In this document: piece after piece, positions 715 to 64,000 of the stretch
How the letters are laid out: every line of letters starts with the position of its first letter
Numbering within the stretch: position 1 is the first letter of the stretch
Source of the DNA: Escherichia phage vB_EcoS_HdK1
Direction: 5' to 3' (one strand)
Sequence record: MK373794.1
DNA length: 64,000 nt
The notes under the pieces: model-generated
Databases searched by the model: none
The model's input: only the letters and a program-made list of their open reading frames with translations
Told to the model about the DNA's origin: nothing
Program-made: the position numbers and the translations under genes

Positions 715-737
715 GGATTGTATAATGCTTTTAGAAG

Positions 738-1279: not shown

Positions 1280-1341
1280 TTCCTCTGTTAACTATGCGAA
1301 GTGCATATTATTGCCCACTGTTACTATGGGCAATGTATATG

Positions 1342-1506: not shown

Positions 1507-1516
1507 AATTATCCCC

Positions 1517-1762: not shown

Positions 1763-1767
1763 GATAA

Positions 1768-1953
1768 TTACTCCGGTAAAATTACAGTGACGTTAATATT
1801 TGCAAGGCGAGCGCACTCGCGGAAACCTTTTACATAAGCATCCATTTCGTCATAGGATGCGAAAGTTGCGTCCGGGACTGGTCCGTTGTTAATATTCACG
1901 CAATATTCGTGTTCGTCCAGGTCAACCCAACAAGTCAGAACGATAGTTTCCAT
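1768..1953 (-). CDS. hypothetical small protein (61 aa; start at internal ATG)
   Basis: ATG at 1953 preceded by GGAGGG RBS; ORF-track version extends to 1986. Confidence 0.45.
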   Translation of the reverse strand: METIVLTCWVDLDEHEYCVNINNGPVPDATFASYDEMDAYVKGFRECARLANINVTVILPE

Positions 1954-2031
1954 ATTATTTGCCCTCCGTATAATACAGACCCGCAACTATTGGAGCTCCG
2001 AAAACTAAGAAAGCTAATAAATAGAACATAA

Positions 2032-2511
2032 TTAGTTACCCCCTTTATTGTTGAGCCCGTTGAATTTACGCCATGCGTAGAATTCAATCGTTGCATTATT
2101 AATATTCCAACCATTAGCTTTCGCAAGGTCACGGACGTTACCAATAGTTGGCACACCATCAGGCAACATATTATCCAGGGCATTCCAAACGTCTGCGCAT
2201 TTACCTTTAATCGGGCGACGAACCCCGTTGCGCGTTTCGCTGCGCGTTTTGCTCTTGGCTGGAGCGACCGGAGCTTGTTGTGTGGTCACTTCCACGACAG
2301 TCGCTTTATCAGCTTCCACCAGATCGCTAGCTGCCTTATTAACCGCGCTTTCGCTGTACCAGTAGCGACCACCGTCTTCGTGCGGTTCCTGGTGAATAAA
2401 GCTATTTGCTGTCGCAGTGTCCACATCCAGAACCTTTTTTAAGGCACGGCGAGCGTTAGACATAGTGGCGAAGAAGCGAGCGTCTTTTGCTACGCGAGTG
2501 ATAGTAACCAT
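2032..2511 (-). CDS. hypothetical protein (159 aa)
   Basis: ATG at 2511 with GGAGA RBS; ORF-track version 2032..2526. Confidence 0.55.
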   Translation of the reverse strand: MVTITRVAKDARFFATMSNARRALKKVLDVDTATANSFIHQEPHEDGGRYWYSESAVNKAASDLVEADKATVVEVTTQQAPVAPAKSKTRSETRNGVRRPIKGKCADVWNALDNMLPDGVPTIGNVRDLAKANGWNINNATIEFYAWRKFNGLNNKGGN

Positions 2512-2587
2512 TGTGAATATCTCCATGTTGTTCTAGCGGATTGCTAGTGGGAGCCCACTGTTACAATGGGCAACCATTAGCACGCTA

Positions 2588-2893
2588 TTATTGTTGAATA
2601 GCTTTATCTATCATTGCGATGAAGCAGAACACAGACCAAAGGCTATTCGCTTGGCATACTGCGCGACCATACATTACGCTATAAGAGCTGACAGTACCGT
2701 CCTCGTTAATGCGAATATATAACGCGGTGCTGGAATACTTTTCGTTGCCCGGGAGCATTACTAAATACTCGTCGAAACCCCAATCCCCGTCGACTTTTTC
2801 CGCAGTAAGGCCCAGTTGGTGCAGTCGCTTGCCAATAATGCGCTTAGTAATCTGAGATTGGGACATGGAACGCGGTAAGTAGATAATGGACAT
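2588..2893 (-). CDS. hypothetical small protein (101 aa); paralog of 1016..1279
   Basis: ATG at 2893 with AGGGAGA RBS; shares the ITKRIIGKR N-terminal motif with 1016..1279; ORF-track version extends to 3010. Confidence 0.55.
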   Translation of the reverse strand: MSIIYLPRSMSQSQITKRIIGKRLHQLGLTAEKVDGDWGFDEYLVMLPGNEKYSSTALYIRINEDGTVSSYSVMYGRAVCQANSLWSVFCFIAMIDKAIQQ

Positions 2894-2968
2894 AATGCAA
2901 TCTCCCTTCGGGTGAGGCGGGCGCGGAACCCGTGTCCCGCTTAACAACCCCCTTAACCCTACACAGTT

Positions 2969-2997
2969 ATAGTATGACAACGGGGTATCAGATGCAA
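2969..2997 (-). promoter_or_regulatory. sigma70-like promoter candidate driving leftward transcription of 2893..738
   Basis: Minus strand reads TTGCAT-N17-TACTAT (revcomp of 2992..2997 and 2969..2974). Confidence 0.25.
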
Positions 2998-3073
2998 CTA
3001 TTATCTGCAATATTTTAGAACTTTTTTAGTTGTGTTTCATAATAATAACATCCGGGACTATGCGGTAGATGGT

Positions 3074-3147
3074 GTGCCGGAAATACCAGGTAGCGCGAGC
3101 GTGCCGAAAATACCAGGTAACAGCACGCGCCGAACATACCAGGTAGC
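3074..3147. repeat. Three 21-bp direct repeats (iteron-like), consensus GyGCCGrAmATACCAGGTArC
   Basis: gtgccggaaataccaggtagc (3074..3094), gtgccgaaaataccaggtaac (3101..3121), gcgccgaacataccaggtagc (3127..3147); spacing 27 and 26 bp; non-coding region. Confidence 0.6.
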
Positions 3148-3535
3148 ACATACATAGACAGCACATAGTGGGCAGGTGGATAGTAACAGATGCAATTATA
3201 CTGGACGGTACAGTATAGTCATGTAATAGATAGCATACTAATTAAATAAAAAATAATAACGCGTGTAACAATAAACAACGTTACAGTAGAGCGCGCAACA
3301 GTCACATGACGTAACAATCACCTCACTGACGATCACGGGACGTTATAGTAACGCCGCGGGGCGGCTCTTAGATCTCTGCCAAGGATTCTAGACGTAAACA
3401 TTGAATCGCCACTAGACTATTTACATCACAACCTCACTCCTCACACAATAATACATAGAATTTAAATCCGTATATAAATACTCGAGATAGTATCTACATA
3501 TTCGAGGATGAGTGCTCAATCATTGTAGGTTATAA

Positions 3536-4441: not shown

Positions 4442-4779
4442 TGGCCAAAGATATCGTTATTCCGAAAATGTATTGTCAGCTCCGTGATACTTTATTACAG
4501 AGCGGCTGGATTATTAGTCACAGCGATGTAAATGACACTTATATCGTTCTTATACCACCTGAAGGAACGATATCTTGCATTTTGCACTATATGCCCGAAG
4601 CAAAGACGGTTTATCCGAACGGGTCGTTCTTGCTTCGTCTGCGCTCCGACACATGGAAGATCCAGACTGATACCTGTGCAATTGACGAGAATACCAGTAA
4701 AGAGTTTATTCGCAAGCTAACTCAGCTGAATAAAATCTACGAGCATGTTAAATTTGATTTGTTTAAGGAAGTGTTCTAA
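4441..4779 (+). CDS. hypothetical protein (112 aa)
   Basis: ORF start overlaps the previous stop (ATGG/TAATGG style coupling). Confidence 0.5.
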   Translation: MAKDIVIPKMYCQLRDTLLQSGWIISHSDVNDTYIVLIPPEGTISCILHYMPEAKTVYPNGSFLLRLRSDTWKIQTDTCAIDENTSKEFIRKLTQLNKIYEHVKFDLFKEVF

Positions 4780-5219
4780 TGGTTACTATTAACGATCGCA
4801 TCACACATAAAACTCAGCCGACAATGATGTCTTGCATGGCAGCCTGTTTGGCTATGCTTCTTGACAGGGATGTTGAAGAGGTTGACAACGAATTCAGCCT
4901 AGACTACGTTCGTGGGTATATTGATGTTGCTACTTATCTATATCGACAAGGTATCTTTGCACAGCCACATATCACTGCCGGTATGCACCAAATATATCCA
5001 GGGCGCTTGTATCTTGCGACTGTACCTTCTTTGCAGTTACCTGGGCTTTTCCATCAGATCATTATTGACGCTCGTTTTGACGGTGTAACCGTATACGATC
5101 CAGCTAAAGGTCTGGAAGGGAAACAATATTATTCCTATGACCACATTGCAGAAGAAAACGAGCTGGCGTATCCTTTGCGGTCTTTCTTGATTGATTACGA
5201 AATTATATTACCGGAGTGA
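4779..5219 (+). CDS. papain-like cysteine peptidase, C39-like domain (putative)
   Basis: Q-x5-C signature QPTMMSCMAACLAMLL and a His block HQIIIDARFDGVTVYDPAKG resembling the C39 peptidase Gln/Cys/His arrangement. Confidence 0.45.
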   Translation: MVTINDRITHKTQPTMMSCMAACLAMLLDRDVEEVDNEFSLDYVRGYIDVATYLYRQGIFAQPHITAGMHQIYPGRLYLATVPSLQLPGLFHQIIIDARFDGVTVYDPAKGLEGKQYYSYDHIAEENELAYPLRSFLIDYEIILPE

Positions 5220-13012: not shown

Positions 13013-13573
13013 ATGTCTAAAATTCTGTCAGCTCCGATGCTTAATTTGCGAGCTACCAATTCAATTCTTCTGTCTGCTGTTCGTCGTGGTGCAATCACTG
13101 AACTTGCAGATGTTATCGTTCCAGAGATCTTCGTACCGTATGTGCAGAACCGCACAACTGAAAAGTCCCGACTGATCCAGTCTGGTGCTATTGAGATTTC
13201 TGAGCGTCTTAACGCTGCATTGATGGGTGAAGGTACTACCTTTAACCAGCGTTTCTTCAAAGATCTGGATCGTGACGAAGAAAACGTTTCAAGCGCAAGC
13301 GATTCAACCGATTCTACTCCTGGTGGTATCAAATCTGGGCGTGAAATTCAGATCCGTCTGTCCCGTAACCATTCCTGGGGTTCTGCGGACCTGCTGGACA
13401 GCCTGATCTCCCCGGACCCGCTGGATGCTATCATTAACTTAGTGGCAAGCTACCGTCAGAGCCGTCTGCAACGTGCATTCGTTGCAACTGTCAGTGGTGT
13501 GTTTGCTATGAACGCCGCTGCTCTCCGGTTGGTTCCGGTGATAAGAAGTCTACCCATGTTCAGAACGATATGA
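13013..13573 (+). CDS. major capsid protein, N-terminal fragment (gene interrupted by frameshift)
   Basis: ATG at 13013 with GGAG RBS; ORF terminates at 13573 while the capsid-like sequence continues in the -1 frame. Confidence 0.7.
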   Translation: MSKILSAPMLNLRATNSILLSAVRRGAITELADVIVPEIFVPYVQNRTTEKSRLIQSGAIEISERLNAALMGEGTTFNQRFFKDLDRDEENVSSASDSTDSTPGGIKSGREIQIRLSRNHSWGSADLLDSLISPDPLDAIINLVASYRQSRLQRAFVATVSGVFAMNAAALRLVPVIRSLPMFRTI

Positions 13574-14130
13574 CCCATGATATCTCTGGTTCATCCTTCA
13601 CTGATGGTGTGACTAACTTCAACCCGGCCGGTGTTATCCTGGCGGCTGGTACTATGGGTGACTCCCTGAACGACCTGTCCATGATGATGGTTCACAGTGT
13701 GGTTTACCAGCGTATGCAGCTGATGAACCTGATCGACTTCATCCCGGATGCCCGTGCTGAAGTAATGATCCCAACTTACATGGGCCGTGAAGTTATCGTT
13801 GATGATATGATGCCTCACGATAGCGGTAAGTACGAAACCTGGCTGGTCGGTCGTCGTGGTGCATTCCAGTTAGGTGTTGGTTCACCGAAAGTTCCTGTTG
13901 AAACTGAACGTAAACCTGCGTCCTACAAAGGTGGCGGTTCTGAAATCCTGTTCCACCGCTGGGAAAACATCATTCACCCTGTCGGTCACGCATGGGTTGG
14001 TACTGCTGCTGAAGGTGGCCCGGATAACGCCGCTCTGAAGACTGCTGCCAACTGGGCTCGTGTATTCCCTGAGCGTAAACAGATTAAGATTGCTCGCCCT
14101 GATCACTCGCGAACACGCTTAATGCTTTAG
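13570..14130 (+). CDS. major capsid protein, C-terminal fragment
   Basis: Open frame continues upstream of 13570 into the previous ORF (GSGDKKSTHVQND...); combined length about 370 aa fits an HK97-fold capsid protein. Confidence 0.7.
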   Translation: MTHDISGSSFTDGVTNFNPAGVILAAGTMGDSLNDLSMMMVHSVVYQRMQLMNLIDFIPDARAEVMIPTYMGREVIVDDMMPHDSGKYETWLVGRRGAFQLGVGSPKVPVETERKPASYKGGGSEILFHRWENIIHPVGHAWVGTAAEGGPDNAALKTAANWARVFPERKQIKIARPDHSRTRLML

Positions 14131-19114: not shown

Positions 19115-19506
19115 GATCCCGCGAAAAGCTAATTGATCACTTACTGCTCGAATGGCAATTGCACAGTTGCCCGCCGGGCAGTAAGACTCCAACAATTAAA
19201 CATCTCCAGCACGTTAAAAAAGTCACTGGTAAGACTCCCTCCTTACTAGCAAAGTACGAATCCAGCTCCGTACCACACGAACTCAGATACATTTACAAGT
19301 TATTTCTTGACTTTTATAATGGTGATAAATTCAGTTACAGCGAATTTAACGCCTGGCAAGATTATATAGGTGTAGAACTTGATTTCAGAGAGCGTGAACT
19401 AATTCGGGCCAGATTTGTCTTGAACGGCAAGCATTTGATATTAGGCGTCAACAAGAACTTATGCAACACGCTCAGACCAATAATAAAGGAGGTAAATAAT
19501 GGCTGA
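19108..19506 (+). CDS. tail assembly chaperone frameshift extension (G-T-like product)
   Basis: -1 frame relative to 18686..19114, open across the slippery site to 19506; ORF-track portion 19159..19506. Confidence 0.6.
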   Translation, partial: FLRSREKLIDHLLLEWQLHSCPPGSKTPTIKHLQHVKKVTGKTPSLLAKYESSSVPHELRYIYKLFLDFYNGDKFSYSEFNAWQDYIGVELDFRERELIRARFVLNGKHLILGVNKNLCNTLRPIIKEVNNG

Positions 19507-20335
19507 TGCAGCTGACATCGTCATTAGAGTCCGTGCTGAAGGTATTCAGAATGCTGAAACAGCACTGCGACGCTTGCAAGCGGCAGGTGTAAGAGTTGAG
19601 ACTGTCAGCTCGCGTATGGAGAATGGTTTTCACCGTGCGGCTACAAGTGCTGACGCGTTCCATCATGCCATTAGTGCAATCTATACGGTAATGACTGTAA
19701 CCACACTGACATCCTACGTCGGTGGGCTTGCTAAGTTATCGGATGCGTGGCTGGACGTTACTAACAAACTGGCTAACGCCAACTCTGCAAACGAGCAGAT
19801 GGTTGATATTCAAGAGCGAGTATTTGGTATCGCTCAAAGAACTCGTACGAGCCTGGAAGCTACGTCAACTCTTTATGCTCGTATGGAACGTTCACTGAAC
19901 CAGTACGGTGTGACTGGTAAACAGGTCGCTCAGATCACTGAAACAATTAACAAGGCAATGATTGTTTCTGGTGCAACCACTGCGGAATCCACTGCTGCTA
20001 TTATCCAGTTCTCACAGGGTCTGCAATCTGGTGTGTTACGTGGGGACGAATTCCGTTCTGTAATGGAACAAGCTCCTCGTCTTGGTAAGATGATTGCAGA
20101 TGGTCTTGGTGTTGGTACTGCTGGTCTACGCCAGATGGCTAACACTGGACAATTAACCGCTGATGTTGTTATTAACTCCATCTCTAAAGCTGCATCAACT
20201 ATTGACGATGAGTTTAATCGTACAATACCAACGTTCTCTCAGCGAATGGAGATTGCGAATAACAACTTAATTAAATTCGCGGGGAACGTCAACCTCGGTA
20301 CAAACTGTGGTCAATTCAATGGGTGCTGTCATTGA
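19499..20335 (+). CDS. tape measure protein, fragment 1 of 3
   Basis: TMP-like N-terminus; ORF ends at 20335 but protein-like sequence continues in the +1 frame from about 20271. Confidence 0.8.
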   Translation: MADAADIVIRVRAEGIQNAETALRRLQAAGVRVETVSSRMENGFHRAATSADAFHHAISAIYTVMTVTTLTSYVGGLAKLSDAWLDVTNKLANANSANEQMVDIQERVFGIAQRTRTSLEATSTLYARMERSLNQYGVTGKQVAQITETINKAMIVSGATTAESTAAIIQFSQGLQSGVLRGDEFRSVMEQAPRLGKMIADGLGVGTAGLRQMANTGQLTADVVINSISKAASTIDDEFNRTIPTFSQRMEIANNNLIKFAGNVNLGTNCGQFNGCCH

Positions 20336-21458
20336 AACTGCTACAGACCACCTCACCTTGCTGTCTAATGTCGCAATCGGTGTTGCTGCTATTGTTGGCG
20401 GTCGAATGATTACTGCACTGGCTGCACAGATTGCGGCATTCATAAAGCTCAACGCGATACAAGCAAGTAGCTCGGCCATAAACATTAAGACTATTGATGG
20501 TATCACAAGATCCGCAGTAGCTCGATATAATGAAGCACAAGCAACGTTAGCACAGGTTGCAGCCGAGCGCACCAAGATTCAGGCAGCATTGCAAGCCAAC
20601 CAAACGTATTATAAAGGTATAGCGACACTCAACGCATACATGCAGAATACGCGGCAGGTGCGCGAAGCTACGGAAGCGGTTGCTATTGCCCAGACTACCA
20701 TGCAGGCGCGTATGTCTGCCGCGACCGTAGCGTCCCGTGTGCTTACTGTCACCATGACAGGACTGCGGACGGTAATGGGCTTGATGGGTGGACCTGTAGG
20801 TGTGGTCACATTGGCTGCTGCCGCATGGTTCATGTGGAGTCAAAATAGCAAACAAGCTGTCCAGGATGCACAGAACCTTGCTTCCTCCCAAGAAGATTTA
20901 AAGAACAAGTTAAAAGAAACAACTCTTGAACAGCAACGAGCTCTTAGTGTTCAGTTGCAACGTGCCGCTATTACGTTGGACGAACAGATTGCCTCTGAAA
21001 ACAGGGAGTTGGCTGAATTAAAGAACCGTCTTAGCACAGTAACGCGCTATCAAGCTGAAGCAACTGAAGGAACAAGCGAGTATAACCGACTCACTAAAGA
21101 CCGTAAGGAATTAGAAGGTGATGTCGCTATTAAGATTGGTGAAATATCCACTCTTGAGCAAAAAGCACAACAGATTAAATCTAATTTAACGACTGTACTG
21201 AACAATTTAACTGCTGCTGTAATGGGTCACACCGATGCACTCAAAGCAGAAAACGAGCAGTTATCTATTAATATCAGTTCTGCTGCCGGTCGTTCGAAGG
21301 AGCTAGTTAGTGCAATCCAAGCTCAGAATAATGAGCTCGATGTTGCTCAATTGAAGATGTCTGGTCATGCACGACAAGCAAGCATCTTAAAAGATGCTCA
21401 GACAGCTCTTGGTAAGAAGTATAAAGAAAACGAATCGTTCATCCAAGAATTATATTAG
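20307..21458 (+). CDS. tape measure protein, fragment 2 of 3
   Basis: Hydrophobic and coiled-coil segments typical of TMP; second frame break near 21400..21458. Confidence 0.8.
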   Translation: MVNSMGAVIETATDHLTLLSNVAIGVAAIVGGRMITALAAQIAAFIKLNAIQASSSAINIKTIDGITRSAVARYNEAQATLAQVAAERTKIQAALQANQTYYKGIATLNAYMQNTRQVREATEAVAIAQTTMQARMSAATVASRVLTVTMTGLRTVMGLMGGPVGVVTLAAAAWFMWSQNSKQAVQDAQNLASSQEDLKNKLKETTLEQQRALSVQLQRAAITLDEQIASENRELAELKNRLSTVTRYQAEATEGTSEYNRLTKDRKELEGDVAIKIGEISTLEQKAQQIKSNLTTVLNNLTAAVMGHTDALKAENEQLSINISSAAGRSKELVSAIQAQNNELDVAQLKMSGHARQASILKDAQTALGKKYKENESFIQELY

Positions 21459-22761
21459 CGGTCACGCTGACGCAACTGCTGTATTAACGGATGAGCAACG
21501 AGGACTGGTTGAATTTATCAACTTGTCTGGAAAGAACTATGACGCTCAGAAGAAGATCCATGAACAGCAAGAAAAAGAACGTCAGAGTAAGAAAGACAAT
21601 AAAGCTGCCATACGCTATGCTGAACAATGGGATAAAGCATATGAACGCGTAGAAGCGCGTGGTGCTACTGGTTTACAGCGTCTTAACTTACAGCAAGAAG
21701 CTGAAGTTCGTGCTATTCGTGATAAAGCTGAACGAGCTAAAGCATCTGAAGAAGAATTACAGAATGCCTTACTGGCTATTCAACGTAAGTACGATCTGAA
21801 ACGTGCAGAACTGGCAGAGCAGTACAAGCCAGGCGTTGCAATGGTGCGTGCGTACAAAGAAGCCCAGCAAGAAATAAATCAGTTGCTTGAAGCTGGTTTA
21901 TTGACAGAGCAACAGGCATATACGGCTAGATTGAATTTGCAGGCGGATTATTATACAAAACGTGCGCAAATGCAATCTGAATTGAACCCCGCTGGACAAG
22001 CTGCTGATCAAGAAGCTGCTGAACTTGCAACACTTAAATCCCAGTATGAAACAGCGATTGAATTAGCTACTGGTAAGGAAGAGCAACTAACCGCTATCAA
22101 AGAGAACTATGAGCGCATACGACACGACATTCAGTTGAAGTACGCTCAGAAGCAGATGCTCGCACAGAACCAGACGGCAATGGCTTACATTGAAAGTCTG
22201 AGCTCTATGGCTGGATCAATGACCACAATTATGGCGGCTGCTGGCGATGATGCTAGTGGTGCTTACAGGGTTATGTTCGCACTGTCTAAATCGTTCAGTA
22301 TTGCTCAGTCGATGTTAAGTATTACTACCGCACTGTCGCAGGTGTTAGCAGATCCGACAGCATTGACACCGATGCAAAAGATGGCCAACTACGCGACTAT
22401 TGCAGCCGCTGGTGCTAACATTATTTCGACATTATCCAGTGTCGCCCTTACTGGTATGGCTCACGATGGTATAGCCAACGTTCCAGAAGAGGGTACGTGG
22501 CTTCTGAATAAAGGTGAACGAGTTCTTAGTCCCCAACAGAACGCGGACTTTACTAACTTTATGAAGGGTCAATCAAATACTGGCAATAATTCGGGTGGGG
22601 GTGTTATCATTAACCAGAACTTTAACATCCAGGGTAATGGTGATGCAGCTTTGAAAAGCGCAGTTCAACAAGCTGCGAGAGATGGCGCCCAGCAAGGTTA
22701 TAACATGGTACTCCAAGACTTTGCTAACCGTGGATCAATTAGAAAATTAGCGTTGGGGTAA
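21394..22761 (+). CDS. tape measure protein, fragment 3 of 3
   Basis: Coiled-coil rich; the three fragments total about 1,090 aa. Confidence 0.8.
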   Translation: MLRQLLVRSIKKTNRSSKNYISGHADATAVLTDEQRGLVEFINLSGKNYDAQKKIHEQQEKERQSKKDNKAAIRYAEQWDKAYERVEARGATGLQRLNLQQEAEVRAIRDKAERAKASEEELQNALLAIQRKYDLKRAELAEQYKPGVAMVRAYKEAQQEINQLLEAGLLTEQQAYTARLNLQADYYTKRAQMQSELNPAGQAADQEAAELATLKSQYETAIELATGKEEQLTAIKENYERIRHDIQLKYAQKQMLAQNQTAMAYIESLSSMAGSMTTIMAAAGDDASGAYRVMFALSKSFSIAQSMLSITTALSQVLADPTALTPMQKMANYATIAAAGANIISTLSSVALTGMAHDGIANVPEEGTWLLNKGERVLSPQQNADFTNFMKGQSNTGNNSGGGVIINQNFNIQGNGDAALKSAVQQAARDGAQQGYNMVLQDFANRGSIRKLALG

Positions 22762-41706: not shown

Positions 41707-41779
41707 ACTTATTCATAATAACCTACCTTATTAGTTGAACATACCATGTCTTCTAGCGTGTGCGTGAGTATGTATAGCT

Positions 41780-42544
41780 TCACTCTACACCTAAATATTT
41801 GTGGATCTGCAATTGCACGATGTAATTGTGCTTCATTGCATATTTAACGACAGCTTGAGCGTTTGCTTTATTAGCATCGTCGTCCTGTTCATCCATAGGT
41901 TGAAGATAAATCTTACCTTTAAAGTGTACAGGCGGACGTGCGATAAATGGTGTCGCACGGTGATCCAGTGCCTGCAACGGTAAACCATCTTCCTCGTTGA
42001 CGTTTCCGCTTTTCATTACATATTTGAAAGCATCCGCTCGAGCGGAAACGCTAGGGTGAACCTTTGCTGCCTTAGGACTACATACTACCACACAGTTATA
42101 GTTGAGTTCACGCGGGATAGGCATAGTTCCGTTAGTTTCAACCTGTACGCGATAACCTTTCATATCAATAAGGTAATTGATAAAATTAGCAACTTCAGGT
42201 TGACGGAAAGGTTCTCCGCCAGTAATGACAACTAAGTTAGTCTTGGCTTCACCAGTAACACGGACAATCTCTTGCCAGATGTCACCGTGATTCATCTTCT
42301 TACGATTGGACGTGTAGTTTGTATCACATCCTGGGCATTGCAAATTACAACCAGCTAATCGAACAAACACGGCAGGTTGACCACAAAACGGGCCTTCGCC
42401 TTGAATGGTATGAAAAATGGAATGCACGTCAAGAATACCACGTTCACGAACTAACTTCTCAGGTTCCTGAGTATTAATAATTTTCATATGATTTCCAAAT
42501 TTGGCTTGAGCCCAGTGGTGGGCGATAATGGCTTGTGCAAACAT
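41780..42544 (-). CDS. queE: 7-carboxy-7-deazaguanine synthase (radical SAM QueE)
   Basis: Motifs IQGEGPFCGQPAVFVRLAGCNLQCPGCDT and VITGGEP; start uncertain (ATG at 42544 or 42487; ORF-track TTG at 42568). Confidence 0.8.
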   Translation of the reverse strand: MFAQAIIAHHWAQAKFGNHMKIINTQEPEKLVRERGILDVHSIFHTIQGEGPFCGQPAVFVRLAGCNLQCPGCDTNYTSNRKKMNHGDIWQEIVRVTGEAKTNLVVITGGEPFRQPEVANFINYLIDMKGYRVQVETNGTMPIPRELNYNCVVVCSPKAAKVHPSVSARADAFKYVMKSGNVNEEDGLPLQALDHRATPFIARPPVHFKGKIYLQPMDEQDDDANKANAQAVVKYAMKHNYIVQLQIHKYLGVE

Positions 42545-42612: not shown

Positions 42613-43438
42613 TTACTCTGCAGTTTTCTGAGACGGAATTTCTACGTTAGCGGCCGCTTGTGCAATATTAGCAGGTACTGGAACGGATACGCGACCAGTA
42701 ATGCCCATGTATTTCTTCCAGCGAGCGTATTCCGCTTTAACGTTGGCTTCGTTCAGGCCTTTGTCCAGTGCAACAGGCCAGAACGTAGCTGATCGGTGCA
42801 GTCTGCCCCAGCTCCAGGGTCACAGCGTCAAAGATATCCCATGCAGCACGGCACAGAGTACCAACACCAGGCTTGCGAATACCGTTCTGTTCAGGCTCTT
42901 TCTTAGCTTCGCGTTCTGCTGCTTTACGAGCACGCTCTTCGTCCTGCAGACGTTTCTTCTCAGCGCGTTGTGCGTCACGTTTCGCTTTTTCAGCGGCCTT
43001 AGTGGCTTCGCGGGCAGCGGATACACGACCTTTAACATCTTTCAGAGTGGATTCAATGGAGGAAACCAGATCTTCAGATGCTGCAACGGCAGTTTTCAGC
43101 TGATCGTTGTCTTTAACTTTACGTGCTGCCGCTTTAACAGCTTTCAGACCTTCTTTAGCGGTCTTCAGCTGAGCGGTAACTACGCCTTCAACTGCTTTAA
43201 CTTCGTCCAGCAATGAACCTTCGTTCAGGGTCGCGAACTGTTCTTTAACAGCGGACGTAGCACCTTCGATCACATTGTAACCGGCAGTGGCTTCGTTCAT
43301 TGCGGCGTCAACTTTAGCCTGCAATTCACGTGCTGCTTTTTCTTCAGCTTCACGTTTTTTCTTTGCTTCAGCTTCTTTTGCTGCTTTCTTTGCTGCTTCT
43401 TCTGCTTCCAGTTGTTCTGGAGTTTTCTCTTTAGCCAT
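42613..43438 (-). CDS. Lys/Ala/Glu-rich helical protein (frameshifted near 42790)
   Basis: N-terminal AEEAAKKAAKEAEAKKKREAEEKAAREL-type low complexity; C-terminal segment ending ...VEIPSQKTAE lies in another frame, ending at 42613 (ORF-track 42737..43438). Confidence 0.45.
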
Positions 43439-43534
43439 GATTTAAATCCTCACAGTGTGGTTATTGGTTGTGAACTACGTTCTAAGTGGTTGCACTATAA
43501 CCCCTCTAAAAGAACTATGCAATATTTTAGTTAA

Positions 43535-44107
43535 TTAATTTAAGCCACGTTCTTTTACCCAGACCCCTAATGTATTACTTGATGTATTACGCTTCACACC
43601 TTGTGCCTCTAAACGATCCATCATTTGTTTTCTAAGCTGAAGGATTTCCTTCTTGTCACGAGGTTCACCAGCTTCTTTCCACATTTCGTCAGCAACAGCG
43701 AAAATAATATCGCGAGTGCCGGCTGTACGCGACGTTGCGGCACGTTTTTCGTTTGCCGGTGTGCTAGTACCTTGCCGCTCTCTTGTCGGTGTCCATGCCC
43801 CTTGTATGCCCATATTTGTTTGTACGGTTGGGCCGTCAATGATGGCGGATTCCAATGAACTATCATTCCGTACTTGAATATTAGGCTCCTCCCCCAAATC
43901 TGGAACAGAGCTGCCTTCGCGGTACATGCACTCACCCTCTTTATTACTAGCAATTGCCCAGTCCGCTTGTTCAGCCACATCCGCATCTATTACTGTCTCC
44001 GGTATTTCATTTAAAAAGTAATGGATGATCTTACTGATCATTTTCTTTGGATATAAAGCACCTTGCTTATTACCCGTTAAGTTGATGTACAAAAGCTGCA
44101 TTTGCAC
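43535..44107 (-). CDS. hypothetical protein, C-terminal fragment of frameshifted gene 43535..44337
   Basis: Upstream same-frame continuation (SSFPLEVEELYKEFDDVQ...) joins the 44140..44337 ORF after a frame change. Confidence 0.45.
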   Translation of the reverse strand: MQMQLLYINLTGNKQGALYPKKMISKIIHYFLNEIPETVIDADVAEQADWAIASNKEGECMYREGSSVPDLGEEPNIQVRNDSSLESAIIDGPTVQTNMGIQGAWTPTRERQGTSTPANEKRAATSRTAGTRDIIFAVADEMWKEAGEPRDKKEILQLRKQMMDRLEAQGVKRNTSSNTLGVWVKERGLN

Positions 44108-49259: not shown

Positions 49260-50204
49260 TTATTCACTAATATCTGTTGGATCACGGAAACTTTGATGCG
49301 TAGGAATACGCAATTTGTCTTTCATACCGTGAGCAAAGAATTTCCATTTAGAAATCTTCCCAATGAATTCATCAGGATGCTCAAAATAATATTTACGTTC
49401 TTCGTGCGTAAGACGACCAGCACCTACACGCATCTCTTGCCCGACTTCAATAAGATCTTCAAGGCCTTCTGGTACTGTAAGCACACGTACATCAAATGAG
49501 CCGACCATACCATTTGGAACCATATTAGCTTGATGGCTTGAACGATAAGTCTGCCCTAACTCATTAATCTGGGCTTCATTCCCATTGGTGCAACCTTCGA
49601 TAATACGAATGATCTCACCTTCACCATCAGTGAAACGCTTAATGCGGAGATAACCGCCTTCACGCTGCGTACTACGACCCCATTTATATTTCGCTTCAAG
49701 GTCACGAATAATAACACCTTCGTATCCCATATCGAGCCAAATATTTTCCCACTCCAAGAGTTCTTGTTCGTTGTTGACCACATACAGTGGCACAAGTTTC
49801 ACGTCCATTAACTCACCGTTAGCGTGGCATTCGTCCACGTACTTCTTGAGCATGTCATAACGCTCTTTGTACGGTAGATGTGCAACATTCGGTTCGCATA
49901 AATCGAACACATGCCACGTCCAAACGTATTCAGCTTCGATTTTAGATGTTGCACTACTTGTCTTGCGACATAAATCAAAGTCTGTTTCGTCCCCAACGGC
50001 AAGCTCACCGTCCATACCATCATAGATGGGAGATCCAAATACCTTTGCGACCTGCTTATTTGCAAAAGATTTAAGACTTCGTCCAACAAGCTCCCCAAAC
50101 GGTTTCATCCCACGAACGCCGTCAATTTTAGGCATGATACCTACAGGGTATTTCTGTTTAGCTGAATCCCAATCTGTTGCTAGATAAGGTTTAAATCGAG
50201 CCAT
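49260..50204 (-). CDS. ATP-dependent DNA ligase
   Basis: Adenylation motif MPKIDGVRG (KxDGxR); size 314 aa. Confidence 0.75.
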   Translation of the reverse strand: MARFKPYLATDWDSAKQKYPVGIMPKIDGVRGMKPFGELVGRSLKSFANKQVAKVFGSPIYDGMDGELAVGDETDFDLCRKTSSATSKIEAEYVWTWHVFDLCEPNVAHLPYKERYDMLKKYVDECHANGELMDVKLVPLYVVNNEQELLEWENIWLDMGYEGVIIRDLEAKYKWGRSTQREGGYLRIKRFTDGEGEIIRIIEGCTNGNEAQINELGQTYRSSHQANMVPNGMVGSFDVRVLTVPEGLEDLIEVGQEMRVGAGRLTHEERKYYFEHPDEFIGKISKWKFFAHGMKDKLRIPTHQSFRDPTDISE

Positions 50205-51207: not shown

Positions 51208-51282
51208 GTTATTGCCCTCGTTGTTTGCTAATAGGGGTATAATACTTAGAATTAAATTCCTTGTAAATACCCCTAAATATGA

Positions 51283-54434: not shown

Positions 54435-54665
54435 ATGACTCACCAAGATCTTATAAAAAGAAACATCAGAACTGCAATGAACAAGTCAGAGGAATTCTCA
54501 CATAACTGTACTGATGGTACTCATAAAATTAGATACGAATATATGGGATCCTCAACTGTGGTTAAGTTTGAGAAAGATGAGTATCACGTTGGAGATTTTT
54601 CAACACCAGATTACGACGAGATGTTTGAATACGTTGTATGTGGGTTCTTAAAATTGCACGAATAA
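54435..54665 (+). CDS. hypothetical protein (76 aa), lone plus-strand gene inside the minus-strand block
   Basis: GGAGGAA RBS; followed immediately by a strong terminator. Confidence 0.5.
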   Translation: MTHQDLIKRNIRTAMNKSEEFSHNCTDGTHKIRYEYMGSSTVVKFEKDEYHVGDFSTPDYDEMFEYVVCGFLKLHE

Positions 54666-54669: not shown

Positions 54670-54696
54670 ATGGGCGCATATAGCGCCCATTTTTTA
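54670..54696. terminator. bidirectional Rho-independent terminator
   Basis: Stem atgggcgc / gcgcccat (54670..54677 and 54683..54690) followed by TTTTTT on the plus strand and T-rich sequence on the minus strand. Confidence 0.55.
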
Positions 54697-55746
54697 TAAC
54701 TTAATAACTTCGTTCATTCTCTCAATATCTACCAAATAACACTTCATTCTCGGTGGTGTAAACTCTGCGCCGAAGAAATTTGAAAAGTCCATTGGCCTCA
54801 TCTCGGTAAGAACTTCCATAGACATCAAACCATAGATTGTATTGTCTATGACCTGTAGGATGTTGTCATTTCTTGTCTGTTTAAAAGCCTTGAACTGGCG
54901 ACATACTGTGCATAGATCACTCCTTGTGACAATAAATGCGTCCTTAAACATGGGAAACCGTTTATATACACCAGCTTTAACTTCACCATCCAAGAACTTC
55001 TTAATGGAGTTCAGCATTATCTTCTCACGACTTGTACTGTCCGTAGAACCAATCTGCCCACTGTTACGCTTCTCTAAGAAACGCTCGTTACCCTGATCGA
55101 TAAATGACTCAGCCCAACGATAATGTTCCATAGTGACAACAGGACGCTCACTGTTATCTGCAACAGCAAGAAGAGAAGCTATACGCAATACCTTCAACGC
55201 CTTCCTTGTGTACATCTGACGAATTACTTCGTCTTGCACCTGCTCACCATCATTGCCGCTGTTCAGGAACTTCGCAACAATATTATCAAGATTATCAAAC
55301 GCTTCGTGTACCTCTGCTTCCATTTCAACATAACACGGAGCAGTCCCTGACATAATACGCACAGCTTGTTTATAGATAGCTCCAATAGTGCGCAGTATTG
55401 CTTCTGGATATTCCAGGAGCATACTCTTATTCATCAATGGGCGGTTAGCTGTACATTCCCATGCGATAATACGGGACATGAAACCACTCGACATCATGCG
55501 GTCATCTACGTTCCCGTAAAATTCATCTGGTGTTGTTTCACCTGCAAAACTATACGCCTTAACCTTACCGCCAGCAGTCGTATTATCTTTACTAGAGTGC
55601 TTTGAACCACCAGAGAAAGCATAGAAATGCCCCTTGTCATAAAGGGAAAGCATTTCATCCATAATGTCTTTAGCTTTACCGACTTCCATCTTACCGTTAC
55701 GGAAAAAATGCACCGACTTCAGTCTTATAGTTAATGGATGAGCCAC
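54694..55746 (-). CDS. primase-polymerase / helicase-like replication protein, C-terminal fragment (multiply frameshifted gene spanning 54694..57260)
   Basis: 350-aa ORF continuous in sequence with upstream fragments; frame break next to an 8-A homopolymer at about 55881..55888. Confidence 0.45.
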   Translation of the reverse strand: MAHPLTIRLKSVHFFRNGKMEVGKAKDIMDEMLSLYDKGHFYAFSGGSKHSSKDNTTAGGKVKAYSFAGETTPDEFYGNVDDRMMSSGFMSRIIAWECTANRPLMNKSMLLEYPEAILRTIGAIYKQAVRIMSGTAPCYVEMEAEVHEAFDNLDNIVAKFLNSGNDGEQVQDEVIRQMYTRKALKVLRIASLLAVADNSERPVVTMEHYRWAESFIDQGNERFLEKRNSGQIGSTDSTSREKIMLNSIKKFLDGEVKAGVYKRFPMFKDAFIVTRSDLCTVCRQFKAFKQTRNDNILQVIDNTIYGLMSMEVLTEMRPMDFSNFFGAEFTPPRMKCYLVDIERMNEVIKL

Positions 55747-55767
55747 AAGACATAACGGACGTATCCA

Positions 55768-56352
55768 TTATGACATCCTTGCGCAATGCAGCATCAGACG
55801 CATAGGTACTTGTATCCAAGACACGTTCGATACCAAATATCTGCTGACCGTCTTGACCGCCATAATTGGATACTTGAGAAAAAAAAGAATAGTTTCAATG
55901 TTGGAGCGAAACGCTTCTTTACCAATACCAGAACGTGCAATTAGTACAAAGTAGTTATTCAAACCACTTCGTGTGACTGTGTTCCACGCCTTACCGCACA
56001 TACCACTAAATAAAGCAAGCGCAGACAGAATACTAATGTCTTTAATAGGCAACAAGCTCGCTTTATACATATTACGCGCAACCTCGCCCATAAAGCCCGG
56101 AGGCCAAGCCAAACCGTCTGCCTGCTCTTCAGTGTAATTACCATCTGTAGTCAACACTTCTTCAGGTGGGCGTTCTGGTGTAGTTGCTTGACGTAGTTTT
56201 TCCGTGCGCTCTATAGCTGCATTAACGTTATTCTGAACTATCTGCATAAGTCCCATAGATTTAACATGGGCATCGTAGCGATAGTTGCGAATCATTCTAT
56301 CCAGGTGGTACGGACGTTTAATTTTTTCACCAGGCATACGACGGGGAATCAT
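55768..56352 (-). CDS. primase-polymerase / helicase-like protein, central fragment
   Basis: Segment ...NYFVLIARSGIGKEAF then out-of-frame tail; overlaps the upstream fragment in another frame. Confidence 0.4.
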   Translation of the reverse strand: MIPRRMPGEKIKRPYHLDRMIRNYRYDAHVKSMGLMQIVQNNVNAAIERTEKLRQATTPERPPEEVLTTDGNYTEEQADGLAWPPGFMGEVARNMYKASLLPIKDISILSALALFSGMCGKAWNTVTRSGLNNYFVLIARSGIGKEAFRSNIETILFFLKYPIMAVKTVSRYLVSNVSWIQVPMRLMLHCARMS

Positions 56353-56474
56353 CGTAACGGCTACTCATTGGTGAATACATGAATAGACGTCTTACCTGGA
56401 AATTGTACTTACTCTTAAAGCAAAGAAAGTCAATTAATGCAAATTCTGCTTCAGACTGAGAAGGGAAACAACGT

Positions 56475-56855
56475 TCACCGATTAGAAGTATCAACTTCTT
56501 CAGCTCTCCAACGACCCTCCCATAGCTGCTTAAACAATGTTCCGTTTTCTTGTTCGCACAACTGAATATAGACATCCTGGTCTTCCATTGCATATGGGTC
56601 GTTACTAAAATCTTCTTCAGTAAGTTCCAGCATTTGGAAGCCATCAGACTCATTAATCTCACTCATCTCAGACATAAGTTGGATGAATGAGATTAGCGAT
56701 ATACCCTTCGCTTTCACTGCCTGGAGCACCAGACACAGTGCGCGGGAGTAAAGTAACATCCCAGTGATCCCCTGTACAGATAATAAAACGATACTGGGAA
56801 TACACTTCCACACCGTCACGGCGCTTACCAGCCTGAGGGGATGGAATAAATCCAT
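56475..56855 (-). CDS. primase-polymerase-like protein, internal fragments (at least 3 frames used between 56327 and 56871)
   Basis: Protein-like segments alternate between frames, e.g. TEISRSGDGLHTWIYSIPSGW then AGKRRDGVEVYSQYRFII then SEMSEINESDGFQMLELTEEDF. Confidence 0.35.
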   Translation of the reverse strand: MDLFHPLRLVSAVTVWKCIPSIVLLSVQGITGMLLYSRALCLVLQAVKAKGISLISFIQLMSEMSEINESDGFQMLELTEEDFSNDPYAMEDQDVYIQLCEQENGTLFKQLWEGRWRAEEVDTSNR

Positions 56856-56894
56856 GTGTGCAACCCATCACCGCTTCTGGAAATTTCCGTATAG

Positions 56895-57260
56895 CTATGG
56901 AAACGATTCAACAATCTTCTTATATCGCTCACCAGCAACTTTCTTTTCCATTTCAGACATGGTATCTTTAATGTCCATGTCGATACAACAGAACGGGTCA
57001 CTTGGAAGTAGATAGAAACCTAAACGCAAGTTATGACCAATCTCGTTATAATAACGAACGCAGCGTTCAGCATCTTCAAAAGACATAAGTAAATGCAGGT
57101 TAGACGGTTTCTTATCATTACCGTCTTTACGAAGTGGGACCATATCCCCTAAATCATCGTCCCATACATAAGGTTGTTTTTCTGATGATGTACCCGGATG
57201 GAAACCGCAGACAGCCCACTGTTCGTATTGTTTAATTTCTTGAGGAAAAAGTTCCAGCAT
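56895..57260 (-). CDS. primase-polymerase (AEP superfamily) N-terminal fragment
   Basis: Prim-pol-like pattern EQWAVCGF...KKP...LMSFEDAER...GHNLRLGFYLLPSDPFCCIDMDIKD (DxD motif); downstream SGDGLHTW motif in a shifted frame. Confidence 0.5.
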   Translation of the reverse strand: MLELFPQEIKQYEQWAVCGFHPGTSSEKQPYVWDDDLGDMVPLRKDGNDKKPSNLHLLMSFEDAERCVRYYNEIGHNLRLGFYLLPSDPFCCIDMDIKDTMSEMEKKVAGERYKKIVESFP

Positions 57261-60692: not shown

Positions 60693-63600
60693 ATAAAGGG
60701 GTCTCGTGGGGTCGTCAGTAGACAACTCAAAAATAAAAAATCTTTATAAAATTTATATAAATACACACATATACACATTTTTACCTTATTTTTCATGCAC
60801 TTACCTCCTTTCATTTCGTATATTAAGCGACAATATACGAGCAATATAAGAAATATTTGTTGCGCAACAACGAGGCGCTCACAAGCTCGCGCACGCGCAT
60901 AATGCGGGCACGCGGTCTAACACAAAAGAAAATTGAATTGCAAGCGATTTTTGCTGAGGTAACTCTCGAAGCGAAAGCGATTTGCGAGTTTGAAATTTTG
61001 TAGCCCGAAAACGATTCTATTTTATGGTATAAATGTCGGATTTTTCGGTGAAAGGTGGCTTTTCGGTGAGGTTGGGTGGCTGGGATCGGTGTAACTGGTA
61101 GCCCATAAAGCGAAAATAGCCGCGAAAACGGGGCACGCAGCGCGATTAAATGGTTGGATCAGTGTAAGGGTGGCGGTGAGGGGGCGAAAATGCCGCAAAA
61201 TCGCTTACAGGGATGCAGGGAGTGGGCCGCTGTAAGGGCGTATAAGGCGATTAAATTGGAGTCTATGGTAATGTATGGAAGATGGATTTAGGCTCTTAGA
61301 GCGCGAATGGTGGAGCTATGGGTGAGGAATATGTGGTCAGCAGGGTAGCGCGGGAGGTTATGCAGGTACAAAAACGAAAGCGCCCCGTTGGACTTCAACA
61401 GGGCGCGGATTGTATAATGCTTTTAGAAGTTATTTACTAGTTAATAATACCGCCCAGGTATTATCTGGAAGCGTACCAACTCCGAGTATCTTAAACTGAA
61501 GCGACTTGTTCTGCATGTTGTAGTTGTCGAGTAACTCCTGGGCAGCCGCAGCAGCGTTCGCTTCACCGTTCAGGTTGTAGTCGTTTGCAGTTATTGCACA
61601 CATACCGAGACCGACCGCTTTGAAGCGCATACCTTTGGATTGAGTCGGTGCAAGTGCTTTAACATGGATAGCGTTCATATTATTTATCTCCGTTACAATT
61701 TGAAAGGTTAGCAGTTTTTTAACAGGTTGATGAAGCCCACCAGCGTGGACGCTGTTGCAACCAGGCGGCCCATAGTATGCAGTTCCGCGTAAACTTTACC
61801 GTCGTCAAACACAGTTAAATAAACGTTAAGACCATTGCAACGGACGCGATATTTGCGCGAGTTATTACCAAAAGTTTCCAGCTCTGCGGTGATAGTCGCA
61901 AGATTAGCTATACGTTTGCCGATAATGCGGCGAGTGATAGTGGACTGGTTTAATACTGTAGACATAATCATTTCCTCTGTTAACTATGCGAAGTGCATAT
62001 TATTGCCCACTGTTACTATGGGCAATGTATATGTCACTCAGCGGACACATATTCTAACGCTTCTGATAGTGTAGCGAAGTAACCATCGCTCACCAGATTA
62101 ATAGCGTACTCAAGTTGATCGCGGGTCAGGTTGCGAAACTTGTTACGGATGTGATAGCAACGACCGCGATAAATAACCTGGAAATAGTTGCGTTCCATAA
62201 TTATCCCCTTATGCAACGATGAACGCGTAACCGCTTTGATCCGGGAGTTCACCACCGGAAAGAATTTCAAACTCAACGCCCGCTTTATCGCTGAACTTTT
62301 TGATAAGCTCTTCCGCTGCGGCGCGGTGGTTGCCGTAAACACCAAGATCGTCACGCCACGTGATAGTCAAGGAGCCGTTCCAACCTGTTGCTTTTACGCG
62401 CGGGTTACGGGTGGCAGTCGGGTTCATGAATTTTGTGATGATAGCTTGAGCCATGATAATTACTCCGGTAAAATTACAGTGACGTTAATATTTGCAAGGC
62501 GAGCGCACTCGCGGAAACCTTTTACATAAGCATCCATTTCGTCATAGGATGCGAAAGTTGCGTCCGGGACTGGTCCGTTGTTAATATTCACGCAATATTC
62601 GTGTTCGTCCAGGTCAACCCAACAAGTCAGAACGATAGTTTCCATATTATTTGCCCTCCGTATAATACAGACCCGCAACTATTGGAGCTCCGAAAACTAA
62701 GAAAGCTAATAAATAGAACATAATTAGTTACCCCCTTTATTGTTGAGCCCGTTGAATTTACGCCATGCGTAGAATTCAATCGTTGCATTATTAATATTCC
62801 AACCATTAGCTTTCGCAAGGTCACGGACGTTACCAATAGTTGGCACACCATCAGGCAACATATTATCCAGGGCATTCCAAACGTCTGCGCATTTACCTTT
62901 AATCGGGCGACGAACCCCGTTGCGCGTTTCGCTGCGCGTTTTGCTCTTGGCTGGAGCGACCGGAGCTTGTTGTGTGGTCACTTCCACGACAGTCGCTTTA
63001 TCAGCTTCCACCAGATCGCTAGCTGCCTTATTAACCGCGCTTTCGCTGTACCAGTAGCGACCACCGTCTTCGTGCGGTTCCTGGTGAATAAAGCTATTTG
63101 CTGTCGCAGTGTCCACATCCAGAACCTTTTTTAAGGCACGGCGAGCGTTAGACATAGTGGCGAAGAAGCGAGCGTCTTTTGCTACGCGAGTGATAGTAAC
63201 CATTGTGAATATCTCCATGTTGTTCTAGCGGATTGCTAGTGGGAGCCCACTGTTACAATGGGCAACCATTAGCACGCTATTATTGTTGAATAGCTTTATC
63301 TATCATTGCGATGAAGCAGAACACAGACCAAAGGCTATTCGCTTGGCATACTGCGCGACCATACATTACGCTATAAGAGCTGACAGTACCGTCCTCGTTA
63401 ATGCGAATATATAACGCGGTGCTGGAATACTTTTCGTTGCCCGGGAGCATTACTAAATACTCGTCGAAACCCCAATCCCCGTCGACTTTTTCCGCAGTAA
63501 GGCCCAGTTGGTGCAGTCGCTTGCCAATAATGCGCTTAGTAATCTGAGATTGGGACATGGAACGCGGTAAGTAGATAATGGACATAATGCAATCTCCCTT

Positions 63601-64000
63601 CGGGTGAGGCGGGCGCGGAACCCGTGTCCCGCTTAACAACCCCCTTAACCCTACACAGTTATAGTATGACAACGGGGTATCAGATGCAACTATTATCTGC
63701 AATATTTTAGAACTTTTTTAGTTGTGTTTCATAATAATAACATCCGGGACTATGCGGTAGATGGTGTGCCGGAAATACCAGGTAGCGCGAGCGTGCCGAA
63801 AATACCAGGTAACAGCACGCGCCGAACATACCAGGTAGCACATACATAGACAGCACATAGTGGGCAGGTGGATAGTAACAGATGCAATTATACTGGACGG
63901 TACAGTATAGTCATGTAATAGATAGCATACTAATTAAATAAAAAATAATAACGCGTGTAACAATAAACAACGTTACAGTAGAGCGCGCAACAGTCACATG
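60693..64000. repeat. Window-end exact duplication, copy 2 (identical to 1..3308); contains duplicate copies of the small minus-strand early genes
   Basis: Same as copy 1; all ORFs at 61430..63702 duplicate those at 738..3010. Not re-listed individually. Confidence 0.9.

Follow-up and report, generated by a model that had tools for sequence, protein, structure and literature searches.

The deep-sea vent phage NrS-1 relies on gp28, a single chain of 718 amino acids, as its replicative polymerase. The chain begins with an archaeo-eukaryotic primase-polymerase (AEP) core that carries DxD and SGDGLH motifs, continues with a helix-bundle domain (HBD) and ends in a ring-forming helicase of the AAA+/SF3-like type, whose Walker A motif contains GK. 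Structures are available for the first 300 residues (N300; PDB 6a9w, 6k9a and 7rr3) and for the CTR (6k9e). Primase, polymerase, NTPase and unwinding activities and a hexameric ring have been demonstrated for NrS-1 only, whose Walker A motif reads GKQGTGKG (PMC7102993). The SaPI5 primase-helicase (PDB 7ola and 7om0, 'DNA primase', 797 amino acids) likewise places an AEP prim-pol domain ahead of a self-loading helicase, but it comes from a staphylococcal pathogenicity island and not from a virulent coliphage. Among the Nonagviruses, the group of phages related to phage 9g, the corresponding gene is annotated as 'DNA primase/helicase' in JenK1 (AKA61098.1) and as 'putative helicase-primase' in HdSG1 (QBQ81083.1), and it falls in PHROG 3022. 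We found no activity assay of any Nonagvirus protein of this kind in the literature.

We analysed a stretch of 64,000 nucleotides (the window) whose genome is that of a Nonagvirus closest to JenK1. GC content in the window is 44.06%, the terminal repeat spans at least 3308 nt, and the QueE gene differs from that of JenK1 by 16 synonymous and no non-synonymous changes. The probable source, the plaque-forming isolate vB_EcoS_HdK1 (MK373794), has published figures of 64,059 bp, 44.07% GC and about 3.4 kb for the terminal repeat, and its QueE is given as identical to the JenK1 protein. A preliminary description, made from the letters alone, had placed one heavily fragmented primase-polymerase gene at 54694-57260. 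These limits proved exact, and the gene could be assigned to the minus strand, where it runs from an ATG at 57260 to a TAA ending at 54694 as one co-linear prim-pol/helicase gene. It is the known NrS-1-type primase-polymerase/AAA+ helicase gene of a phage 9g-like E. coli phage, and it lies between the same neighbouring genes as in JenK1, with which it also shares its start codon, its stop codon and the terminator hairpin downstream. Its length is 2567 nt in the window against 2550 nt in relatives, and it is read in eight pieces owing to seven frameshifting insertions (six of +1 and one of +5), to which one in-frame +6 is added (Table 1). At least five frame switches had been counted before; alignment to ten relatives sets the number at seven.

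Table 1. Positions in the window of the primase-helicase gene, its segments and the inserted bases
Feature	Position	Strand	Remarks
Whole primase-polymerase/helicase gene	54694..57260	-	JenK1 orthologue AKA61098.1 annotated 'DNA primase/helicase'; phrog_3022 'DNA primase', E = 1.9e-245
Segment 1, codons 1-119, frame 0	56904..57260	-	N-terminal part of AEP core; DxD metal-binding motif CIDMD at 56987-56973; aligns to NrS-1 N300
Insertion 1, +1 T	56903	-	Coding strand TT -> TTT; + strand GGAA -> GGAAA; JenK1 codon 120; private, absent from 10 relatives
Segment 2, frame +1	56841..56902	-	SGDGLHTW at 56875-56852
Insertion 2, +1 C	56840	-	CCC -> CCCC
Segment 3, frame +2	56683..56839	-	End of AEP core; RRDGVEVYSQYRFIICTG at 56823-56770
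In-frame +6	56746..56751	-	Adds Leu-Leu; placed by alignment
Insertion 3, +1 C	56682	-	C -> CC
Segment 4, frame 0 again	56484..56681	-	Start of putative helix-bundle region
Insertion 4, +1 A	56483	-	A -> AA
Segment 5, frame +1	56347..56482	-	Putative helix-bundle region; conserved FPSQSEAEFAL at 56467-56435
Insertion 5, +1 C	56346	-	CCC -> CCCC
Segment 6, frame +2	55887..56345	-	Linker helix leading into AAA+ helicase domain; ARSGIGKE (Walker A) at 55938-55915
Insertion 6, +5 T	55882..55886	-	T3 -> T8
Segment 7, frame +1	55709..55881	-	
Insertion 7, +1 T	55708	-	T5 -> T6; same run overcalled independently in the SE1 record
Segment 8, frame +2	54694..55707	-	Remaining helicase domain (DUF3987 match) and C-terminal helical/winged-helix tail
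GC-rich hairpin GGGCGC-tatat-GCGCCC	54672..54688		Between the primase-helicase gene and a convergent small gene, 54435-54665(+)

The N-terminal prim-pol signature that had been picked out, CIDMD followed by SGDGLHTW, is borne out by comparison with NrS-1. The two motifs stand in different frames in the window and align to the IDLD and SGDGLH catalytic motifs of the NrS-1 primase-polymerase. Across 32 homologues, residues D94, D96, G130, G132 and H134 do not vary, giving within one domain the DxD and SGxGxH motifs of the PrimPol clade of the AEP superfamily. Sequence searches of the PDB matched NrS-1 N300 (7rr3, 6a9w and 6k9a) at E about 4e-9, the N-terminal 300 residues being about 20% identical, and profile A1 found its best PDB match in the SaPI5 structure 7ola (E = 2.6e-33 over profile positions 8-273), an alignment confined to the N-terminal region. 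The NrS-1 HBD family PF22763 matches 26 of the 32 family members, with no match to the Nonagvirus orthologue at E <= 0.001. An AlphaFold2 model made of a 97%-identical orthologue (pLDDT 87.5) is helical over residues 180-300, and its Foldseek alignment to N300 (335 columns, 281 target residues) is long enough to take in the HBD.

Beyond the AEP core, a C-terminal helicase had been raised as a possibility. Sequence match and modelled fold mark the C-terminal half as a helicase-type domain with a predicted AAA+/MCM-like and NrS-1 CTR-like fold. It matches DUF3987 at E = 7.7e-7, above Pfam's cut-off, and carries a Walker A motif, ARSGIGKE, in which G443 and the lysine K444 are invariant, as in AAA+/SF3-like helicases. 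In addition to N300, Foldseek matched the model to MCM and ORC AAA+ domains and to the NrS-1 CTR (6k9e; E = 4e-4); the PDB sequence search did not reach this half, which was matched by fold only. NCBIfam has no family for the protein. The enzyme would consist of an AEP primase-polymerase core, a helix bundle and, at the C-terminal end, a hexameric helicase of the AAA+/SF3-like type, in the same domain order as in NrS-1 but in a chain of 849 rather than 718 amino acids. By analogy, it may unwind DNA and prime for the family-B polymerase of the phage. Whereas the NrS-1 enzyme is itself the replicative polymerase, Nonagviruses also encode a family-B DNA polymerase, which makes a primase-helicase role more likely here.

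Comparison with relatives separates the gene from its fragmentation. In 20 of the 22 related sequences this place is occupied by a single unbroken ORF of 2550 nt, not by several independent small genes. The exceptions are 9g (KJ419279) and Salmonella phage SE1 (NC_042025), in which the gene is annotated as 2 and 3 CDSs, respectively. Natural splitting of the gene, which these annotations might suggest, was rejected, as a private 1-nt indel in a short run accounts for each split; the two records have one or two such events each, against seven or eight in the window, and SE1 shares the T5 -> T6 overcall. Even homologues as distant as 29% identity consist of one chain, 740-863 amino acids long. 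As written, the gene in the window reaches its first in-frame stop at codon 122, and its longest ORF (350 amino acids, 55746..54694) ends as segment 8. Once the 17 private inserted bases are left out, it forms the single 2550-nt ORF of the Nonagvirus orthologous group, and we attribute the broken frame to the sequence record, not to the phage. The co-linearity that had been noted across switching frames holds up, far beyond chance, in the joined, repaired translation, which is identical to JenK1 AKA61098.1 at 847 of 849 residues; apart from the extra nucleotides, the two substitutions, I168V and L305M, are the only differences from the Nonagvirus protein. At the DNA level the gene is 97% identical to that of JenK1. 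After repair, the codon differences amount to 58 synonymous and 2 non-synonymous changes across all eight segments, indicating selection on the entire gene in a single frame.

Each insertion is private to the window when set against ten GenBank Nonagvirus genes, the T5 run in SE1 being the sole shared site, and none is shared by descent with any of the 22 related sequences. We considered that JenK1 might be the outlier at the indel sites and rejected this on nine further relatives for this gene and on HdSG1 for the first 32 kb. The locus is very probably a single, normally intact Nonagvirus replication gene, in which the frameshifts and the +6, judged from these alignments, represent insertion errors in the record rather than biology. 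The fragmentation thus almost certainly belongs to the record and not to the phage, in line with the re-sequencing that had been suggested. The annotation should accordingly be one primase-helicase of 849-851 amino acids, not up to eight fragments or a pseudogene, and the fragmentation itself holds no new biology.

The insertions extend well beyond this gene. Genome-wide we counted 28 small frameshifting insertions, 25 of which are simple tandem duplications. Each of those in the primase-helicase gene duplicates the adjacent base or bases, and similar insertions are found throughout the genome. Over the first 32 kb, neither JenK1 nor HdSG1 has any of the window's insertions, and in HdSG1, probably from the same study, this stretch is free of coding frameshifts. 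The same insertion type truncates the genes for the major capsid protein (at codon 187 of 368), the tape measure (279 of 1087), the tail fibre (112 of 1221) and others, in which synonymous differences far exceed non-synonymous ones; no phage could be made from the genome as it is written. About 15 other genes are affected likewise, and the main value of the analysis is in quality control. The preliminary description had called the prim-pol gene the most disrupted in the window, and the counts agree: it holds 7 of the 28 insertions, a density of 2.7 per kb against 0.36 per kb elsewhere (scan statistic for at least seven insertions in any 2567-nt span, P = 0.016). Its seven events fall within about 1.2 kb (55703-56901), more than a uniform error model predicts. 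A higher density of GA and GGC sites as the cause of this clustering was rejected, the gene having 136 such sites per kb against 133 per kb genome-wide.

The insertions could in principle be real mutations in a decaying, replication-defective phage genome, with the primase-helicase gene as a pseudogene. They are, after all, present in the sequence as given, their excess density in this gene would suit such decay, and replication slippage also yields tandem duplications. We nevertheless regard this reading as very unlikely. The substitution pattern and the near-identity of the repaired gene product to JenK1 allow for no period of relaxed selection, and neither relaxed selection nor disruptions shared by descent, the marks of a pseudogene, were found. 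With capsid, tape measure and tail fibre genes equally broken, no particle could form, and yet the probable source, HdK1, is a plaque-forming isolate. A prophage graveyard is also hard to invoke, as Nonagviruses are virulent and no match was found among 5,426 E. coli genomes. That the pieces are expressed as written, either as independent small genes or joined into a full-length protein by programmed frameshifting or transcriptional slippage, is less probable still, and we give it hardly any weight. A U8/A8 run can promote transcriptional slippage, and insertion 6 creates such a run; the multiple CDSs annotated in 9g and SE1 might also be read in this sense, but those splits are the private indels described above. 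At six of the seven sites the run, insertion included, measures only 2-6 nt, and all seven would need serial recoding. Break 1 would part the DxD from the SGDGLH of one catalytic domain, and the homologues are undivided even at the greatest distance compared. Programmed recoding should also leave its trace in relatives, which are read in one frame throughout and have shorter runs in all cases.

The HdK1 study used both PacBio RSII and Illumina platforms. We see an even chance that the artefact is generic and unrelated to DNA modification, arising from homopolymer overcalls (454, Ion Torrent or poorly polished long reads) in places of locally low quality. Nearly all events lengthen a run or duplicate adjacent bases, and they form regional clusters (13.5-15.8 kb and 55.7-56.9 kb) between clean stretches of 5-7 kb, as local dips in quality would give. 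Against this stands the coverage of 228x published for HdK1, at which random errors should have been polished out, which argues for a systematic cause without proving one. A candidate for that cause, to which we assign slightly less than even chances, is single-molecule sequencing of native DNA carrying 7-deazaguanine (dG+). In the related phage CAjan, GA and GGC are the motif for modification with 7-deazaguanine (PMC7544227). Of the 22 single-base insertions in the window, 17 lie at GA or GGC, where a null model that controls for base and run length predicts 9.8 (P about 0.001); the enrichment is modest, the motif was chosen before the test, and what counts as a hit is partly a matter of choice. 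Runs of at least two G have a chance of 0.56-0.69 of touching these motifs in any case, in keeping with the generic explanation. Less easily accommodated by it are the independent SE1 record, in which 5 of 6 private frameshifting insertions fall at GA, and the natural 1-nt indels between PD328 and JenK1, of which only 2 of 6 fall at the motif, about the null rate. Several sites (19408, 44147 and 56746) also show a stutter of G and its 3' neighbour. The literature consulted contained no reports of sequencing errors caused by 7-deazaguanine.

A more specific and more tentative proposal is that the insertions are dG+ footprints marking modified 5'-GA-3' and 5'-GGC-3' sites, and that they point to the target motif of the Nonagvirus DpdA. 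In phage 9g, 25-27% of G is reported as dG+, and its target motif was still called unknown in 2023 (PMC10484667); G in a GA context makes up 26.5% of the G in the genome analysed here. If dG+ is indeed the source, it would explain some frameshift-filled records of hypermodified phages and provide an inexpensive hint to the Nonagvirus dG+ motif. Such frameshift-riddled records could then be mined for modification motifs, and they would need PCR- or WGA-based polishing.

Two of the insertions are longer than a single base. The in-frame +6 is a 5-nt tandem duplication of TTACT with one extra C, at the same + strand GA site. Both this 5-nt duplication and the T3 -> T8 overcall of insertion 6 are atypical of classical homopolymer errors. 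The T8 form had no match in viral or genome contig collections or in metagenome contigs, whereas the T3 form of the site is present in three metagenome contigs. Downstream of the gene, the hairpin at its convergent border is likely to be a bidirectional terminator; the homologous site bears a terminator annotation in HdSG1 and SP8.

The interval 54694–57260 corresponds to exactly one minus-strand gene, which starts with an ATG at 57260 and stops with a TAA whose last base is 54694; in the ORF list it appears as a run of overlapping minus-strand frames of 121, 58, 67, 126, 111, 194 and 350 aa. The motifs CIDMD (56987–56973) and SGDGLHTW (56875–56852) sit in different frames. We aligned the gene with its orthologues from JenK1 (the closest relative and our main reference), 9g, SE1, HdSG1, ESCO3, SP8, JenP1, FritzHoffmann, BRET and PD328. 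Eight insertions emerged, all of them found in the window only, save the T5-to-T6 change at 55708, seen independently in SE1; the T8 form of another tract was absent from every public collection scanned. The insertions cause seven frame switches and split the gene into eight segments. These results confirm the fragmented primase-polymerase gene that a preliminary description had recognized here; its estimate of at least five frame switches was too low.

A single 2550-nt CDS is annotated at this locus in eight GenBank relatives, and an uninterrupted 2550-nt ORF is present in every IMG/VR contig that does not copy SE1, as well as in three metagenome contigs. Homologues as distant as 29% identity are single chains of 740–863 aa. 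Split annotations occur in the records of phage 9g (L002, two CDSs) and Salmonella phage SE1 (L003 and L021, three CDSs) because of private single-base indels, which are probably errors in those records too. Given the intact ORFs of the relatives and the single-chain homologues, the several small genes that had been named beforehand as contradicting one long gene were therefore not observed. In the SE1 record, the tape measure and tail genes are split as well.

The gene product matches PHROG 3022 ('DNA primase', E = 1.9e-245) and, at residues 564–713, Pfam DUF3987 (E = 7.7e-7), together with a weak archaeo-eukaryotic primase (AEP) match. Members of the wider family carry PF22763 (NrS-1 polymerase HBD) and PF13148, and UniRef names one of them 'phage NrS-1 polymerase family'. 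A PDB sequence search matched the N300 fragment of the NrS-1 primase-polymerase (7rr3, 6a9w and 6k9a), pairing both the DxD and the SGDGLH motif and bearing out the N-terminal signature described earlier, and a profile of 32 homologues matched the SaPI5 primase-helicase 7ola (E = 2.6e-33). In Foldseek searches with a 97%-identical orthologue modelled by AlphaFold2 (pLDDT 87.5), the N-terminal part resembled NrS-1 N300 (E = 6e-10) and the C-terminal part resembled the AAA+ domains of MCM and ORC and the NrS-1 C-terminal region 6k9e. The Walker A motif ARSGIGKE (55938–55915), whose G and K are invariant across the family, has the NrS-1 counterpart GKQGTGKG (PMC7102993); with DUF3987 and the AAA+ fold match of the model, it upholds the suggestion of a C-terminal helicase. 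The sequence, profile and fold matches therefore indicate an NrS-1-type primase-polymerase followed by a probable helix bundle and an AAA+/SF3-like helicase. Because the genome also codes for a family-B DNA polymerase, a ligase and RNase H, this Nonagvirus protein is predicted to act as a primase-helicase rather than as the main replicase.

Once the 17 inserted bases are deleted, the translated protein agrees with that of JenK1 at 847 of 849 residues, and the repaired gene differs from that of JenK1 by 58 synonymous and 2 non-synonymous codons, with similar ratios against other relatives. Purifying selection has therefore maintained one reading frame over the full length of the gene until now. 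Genome-wide there are 28 small frameshifting insertions, spread over about 15 genes and nearly all tandem duplications of the adjoining base or bases. Those outside the primase-helicase gene are all tandem duplications and absent from JenK1; over the first 32 kb, compared with HdSG1 as a second full-length reference, the insertions were again confined to the window, and this part of HdSG1 contained no coding frameshift. The reading frame is cut at codon 187 (of 368) in the major capsid gene, codon 279 (of 1087) in the tape measure and codon 112 (of 1221) in the tail fibre; further genes cut in this way include tail fibre assembly and several genes of replication or of the modification cluster. 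The control genes for terminase, portal and DNA polymerase are intact. Synonymous differences still far exceed non-synonymous ones in the broken genes.

A genome damaged in this way could make no virions. If the source is the plaque-forming isolate HdK1, as is probable, truncation of the capsid and tail genes cannot be real. The fragmentation is very probably a property of the sequence record. Real pseudogenization of the primase-helicase gene is highly improbable in view of the selection signature, the intact relatives and the parallel damage to essential genes. The same three observations make recoding, or a set of genuinely split genes, even less likely. The primase-helicase gene itself is genuine and was known before, and the preliminary description read its structure correctly.

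Insertions, affected genes and gene-content differences (window coordinates unless a record is named)
Feature	Position	Strand	Remark
+1 insertions, primase-helicase gene	56903, 56840, 56682, 56483, 56346, 55708	−	alignment to 10 orthologues
+5 insertion (T3 to T8)	55886–55882	−	alignment to 10 orthologues
+6 insertion	56751–56746	−	duplication of TTACT (5 nt) with one additional C
Frameshifting insertions outside the gene (about 21), examples	13524, 14099, 14847, 15136, 15815, 19408, 20284, 21444, 28196, 31613, 31829, 37500, 42778, 44147, 48506, 59168
Genes cut by outside insertions	major capsid 13013–14122; tape measure 19499–22761; tail fibre 27885–31551
SE1 insertions at GA	L025 (SE1 record): 6425, 9347, 23221, 30843, 31874
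HNH and small-gene differences	~50187–50191 and 51212–51262		JenK1 41718–42248 and 43261–43578

Of the 28 frameshifting insertions, 7 fall in the primase-helicase gene, within a span of 1.2 kb. The density in the gene is 2.7 per kb, versus 0.36 per kb in the rest of the genome, and a scan statistic gave P = 0.016 for at least 7 events in any gene-sized span. The seven, with the +6 event, lie within 55703–56901, and the last 1 kb of the gene has none. A second, weaker cluster occupies 13.5–15.8 kb. The density of GA/GGC sites was considered as a reason for the 1.2-kb cluster and ruled out by density comparison.

In the related phage CAjan (Queuovirinae), DpdA places preQ0 at GA and GGC (PMC7544227). 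In phage 9g, 25–27% of G is the 7-deazaguanine modification dG+, at a motif called unknown in 2023 (PMC10484667); 26.5% of G precedes A in the window genome. Counting as hits, on either strand, G-runs with an A after them, A-runs with a G before them, and GGC, we found 17 of 22 single-base insertions at the motif against 9.8 expected with base and run length matched (P ~0.001), a modest statistic for a motif known before testing and a hit definition that involves choices. Most multi-base events also fall at GA or GGC, several doubling the G together with the base 3′ of it. In the independent SE1 record, five of six private frameshifting insertions are at GA; when PD328 is compared with JenK1, two of six natural 1-nt indels are at the motif, approximately the null rate. 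That native modified DNA provokes systematic extra calls in single-molecule sequencing is a reasonable but unproven explanation, and this possible tie between insertion errors and the dG+ motif is the sole lead worth following.

The 17 phage records that Megablast matched to the region all belong to Nonagvirus (9g-like, Queuovirinae); identity is 92–97.5% over the full query, with JenK1 closest, and the whole JenK1 genome is co-linear with the window. HdSG1 and HdK1 were described as two Nonagvirus isolates from chicken faeces, sequenced on PacBio RSII (HGAP3) and Illumina platforms whose assignment to individual phages is unspecified (Korf et al. 2019, PMC6563267). That study lists HdK1 (MK373794) at 64,059 bp, GC 44.07%, 100 CDSs and 228.7x coverage (Table S4), with a terminal repeat of ~3.4 kb in both sister isolates and a QueE the same as that of JenK1. 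The window agrees with HdK1 in several respects: its GC is 44.06%; its ends, 1–3308 and 60693–64000, are 100% identical over 3308 nt, giving a unique unit of 60,692 bp and, in addition, a terminal repeat of 3308 nt or more; and its QueE protein is identical to that of JenK1, with 16 synonymous and 0 non-synonymous differences. It is linearized at the same point as HdSG1.

The HNH homing endonuclease gene that lies between the ligase and RNase H genes of JenK1 is without counterpart in the window, and one small hypothetical gene is also absent or replaced; both are the usual kind of presence/absence difference seen with mobile elements. At 41740–41768, in the spacer adjoining the QueE gene, the window has 29 nt more than JenK1; this insertion and a 24-nt deletion at ~59196 look like natural indels of an ordinary kind and differ from the 1–5 nt duplications. 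The small gene at 4779–5219 (+) stands out from its neighbours: its identity to the JenK1 orthologue is only 83%, its codon differences number 31 non-synonymous against 24 synonymous, and it is either fast-evolving or exchanged. Convergent with the primase-helicase gene is a 76-aa gene at 54435–54665 (+), 100% identical to JenK1 in DNA; between the two genes lies a GC-rich hairpin, GGGCGC-tatat-GCGCCC (54672–54688), which is an annotated terminator in HdSG1 and SP8.
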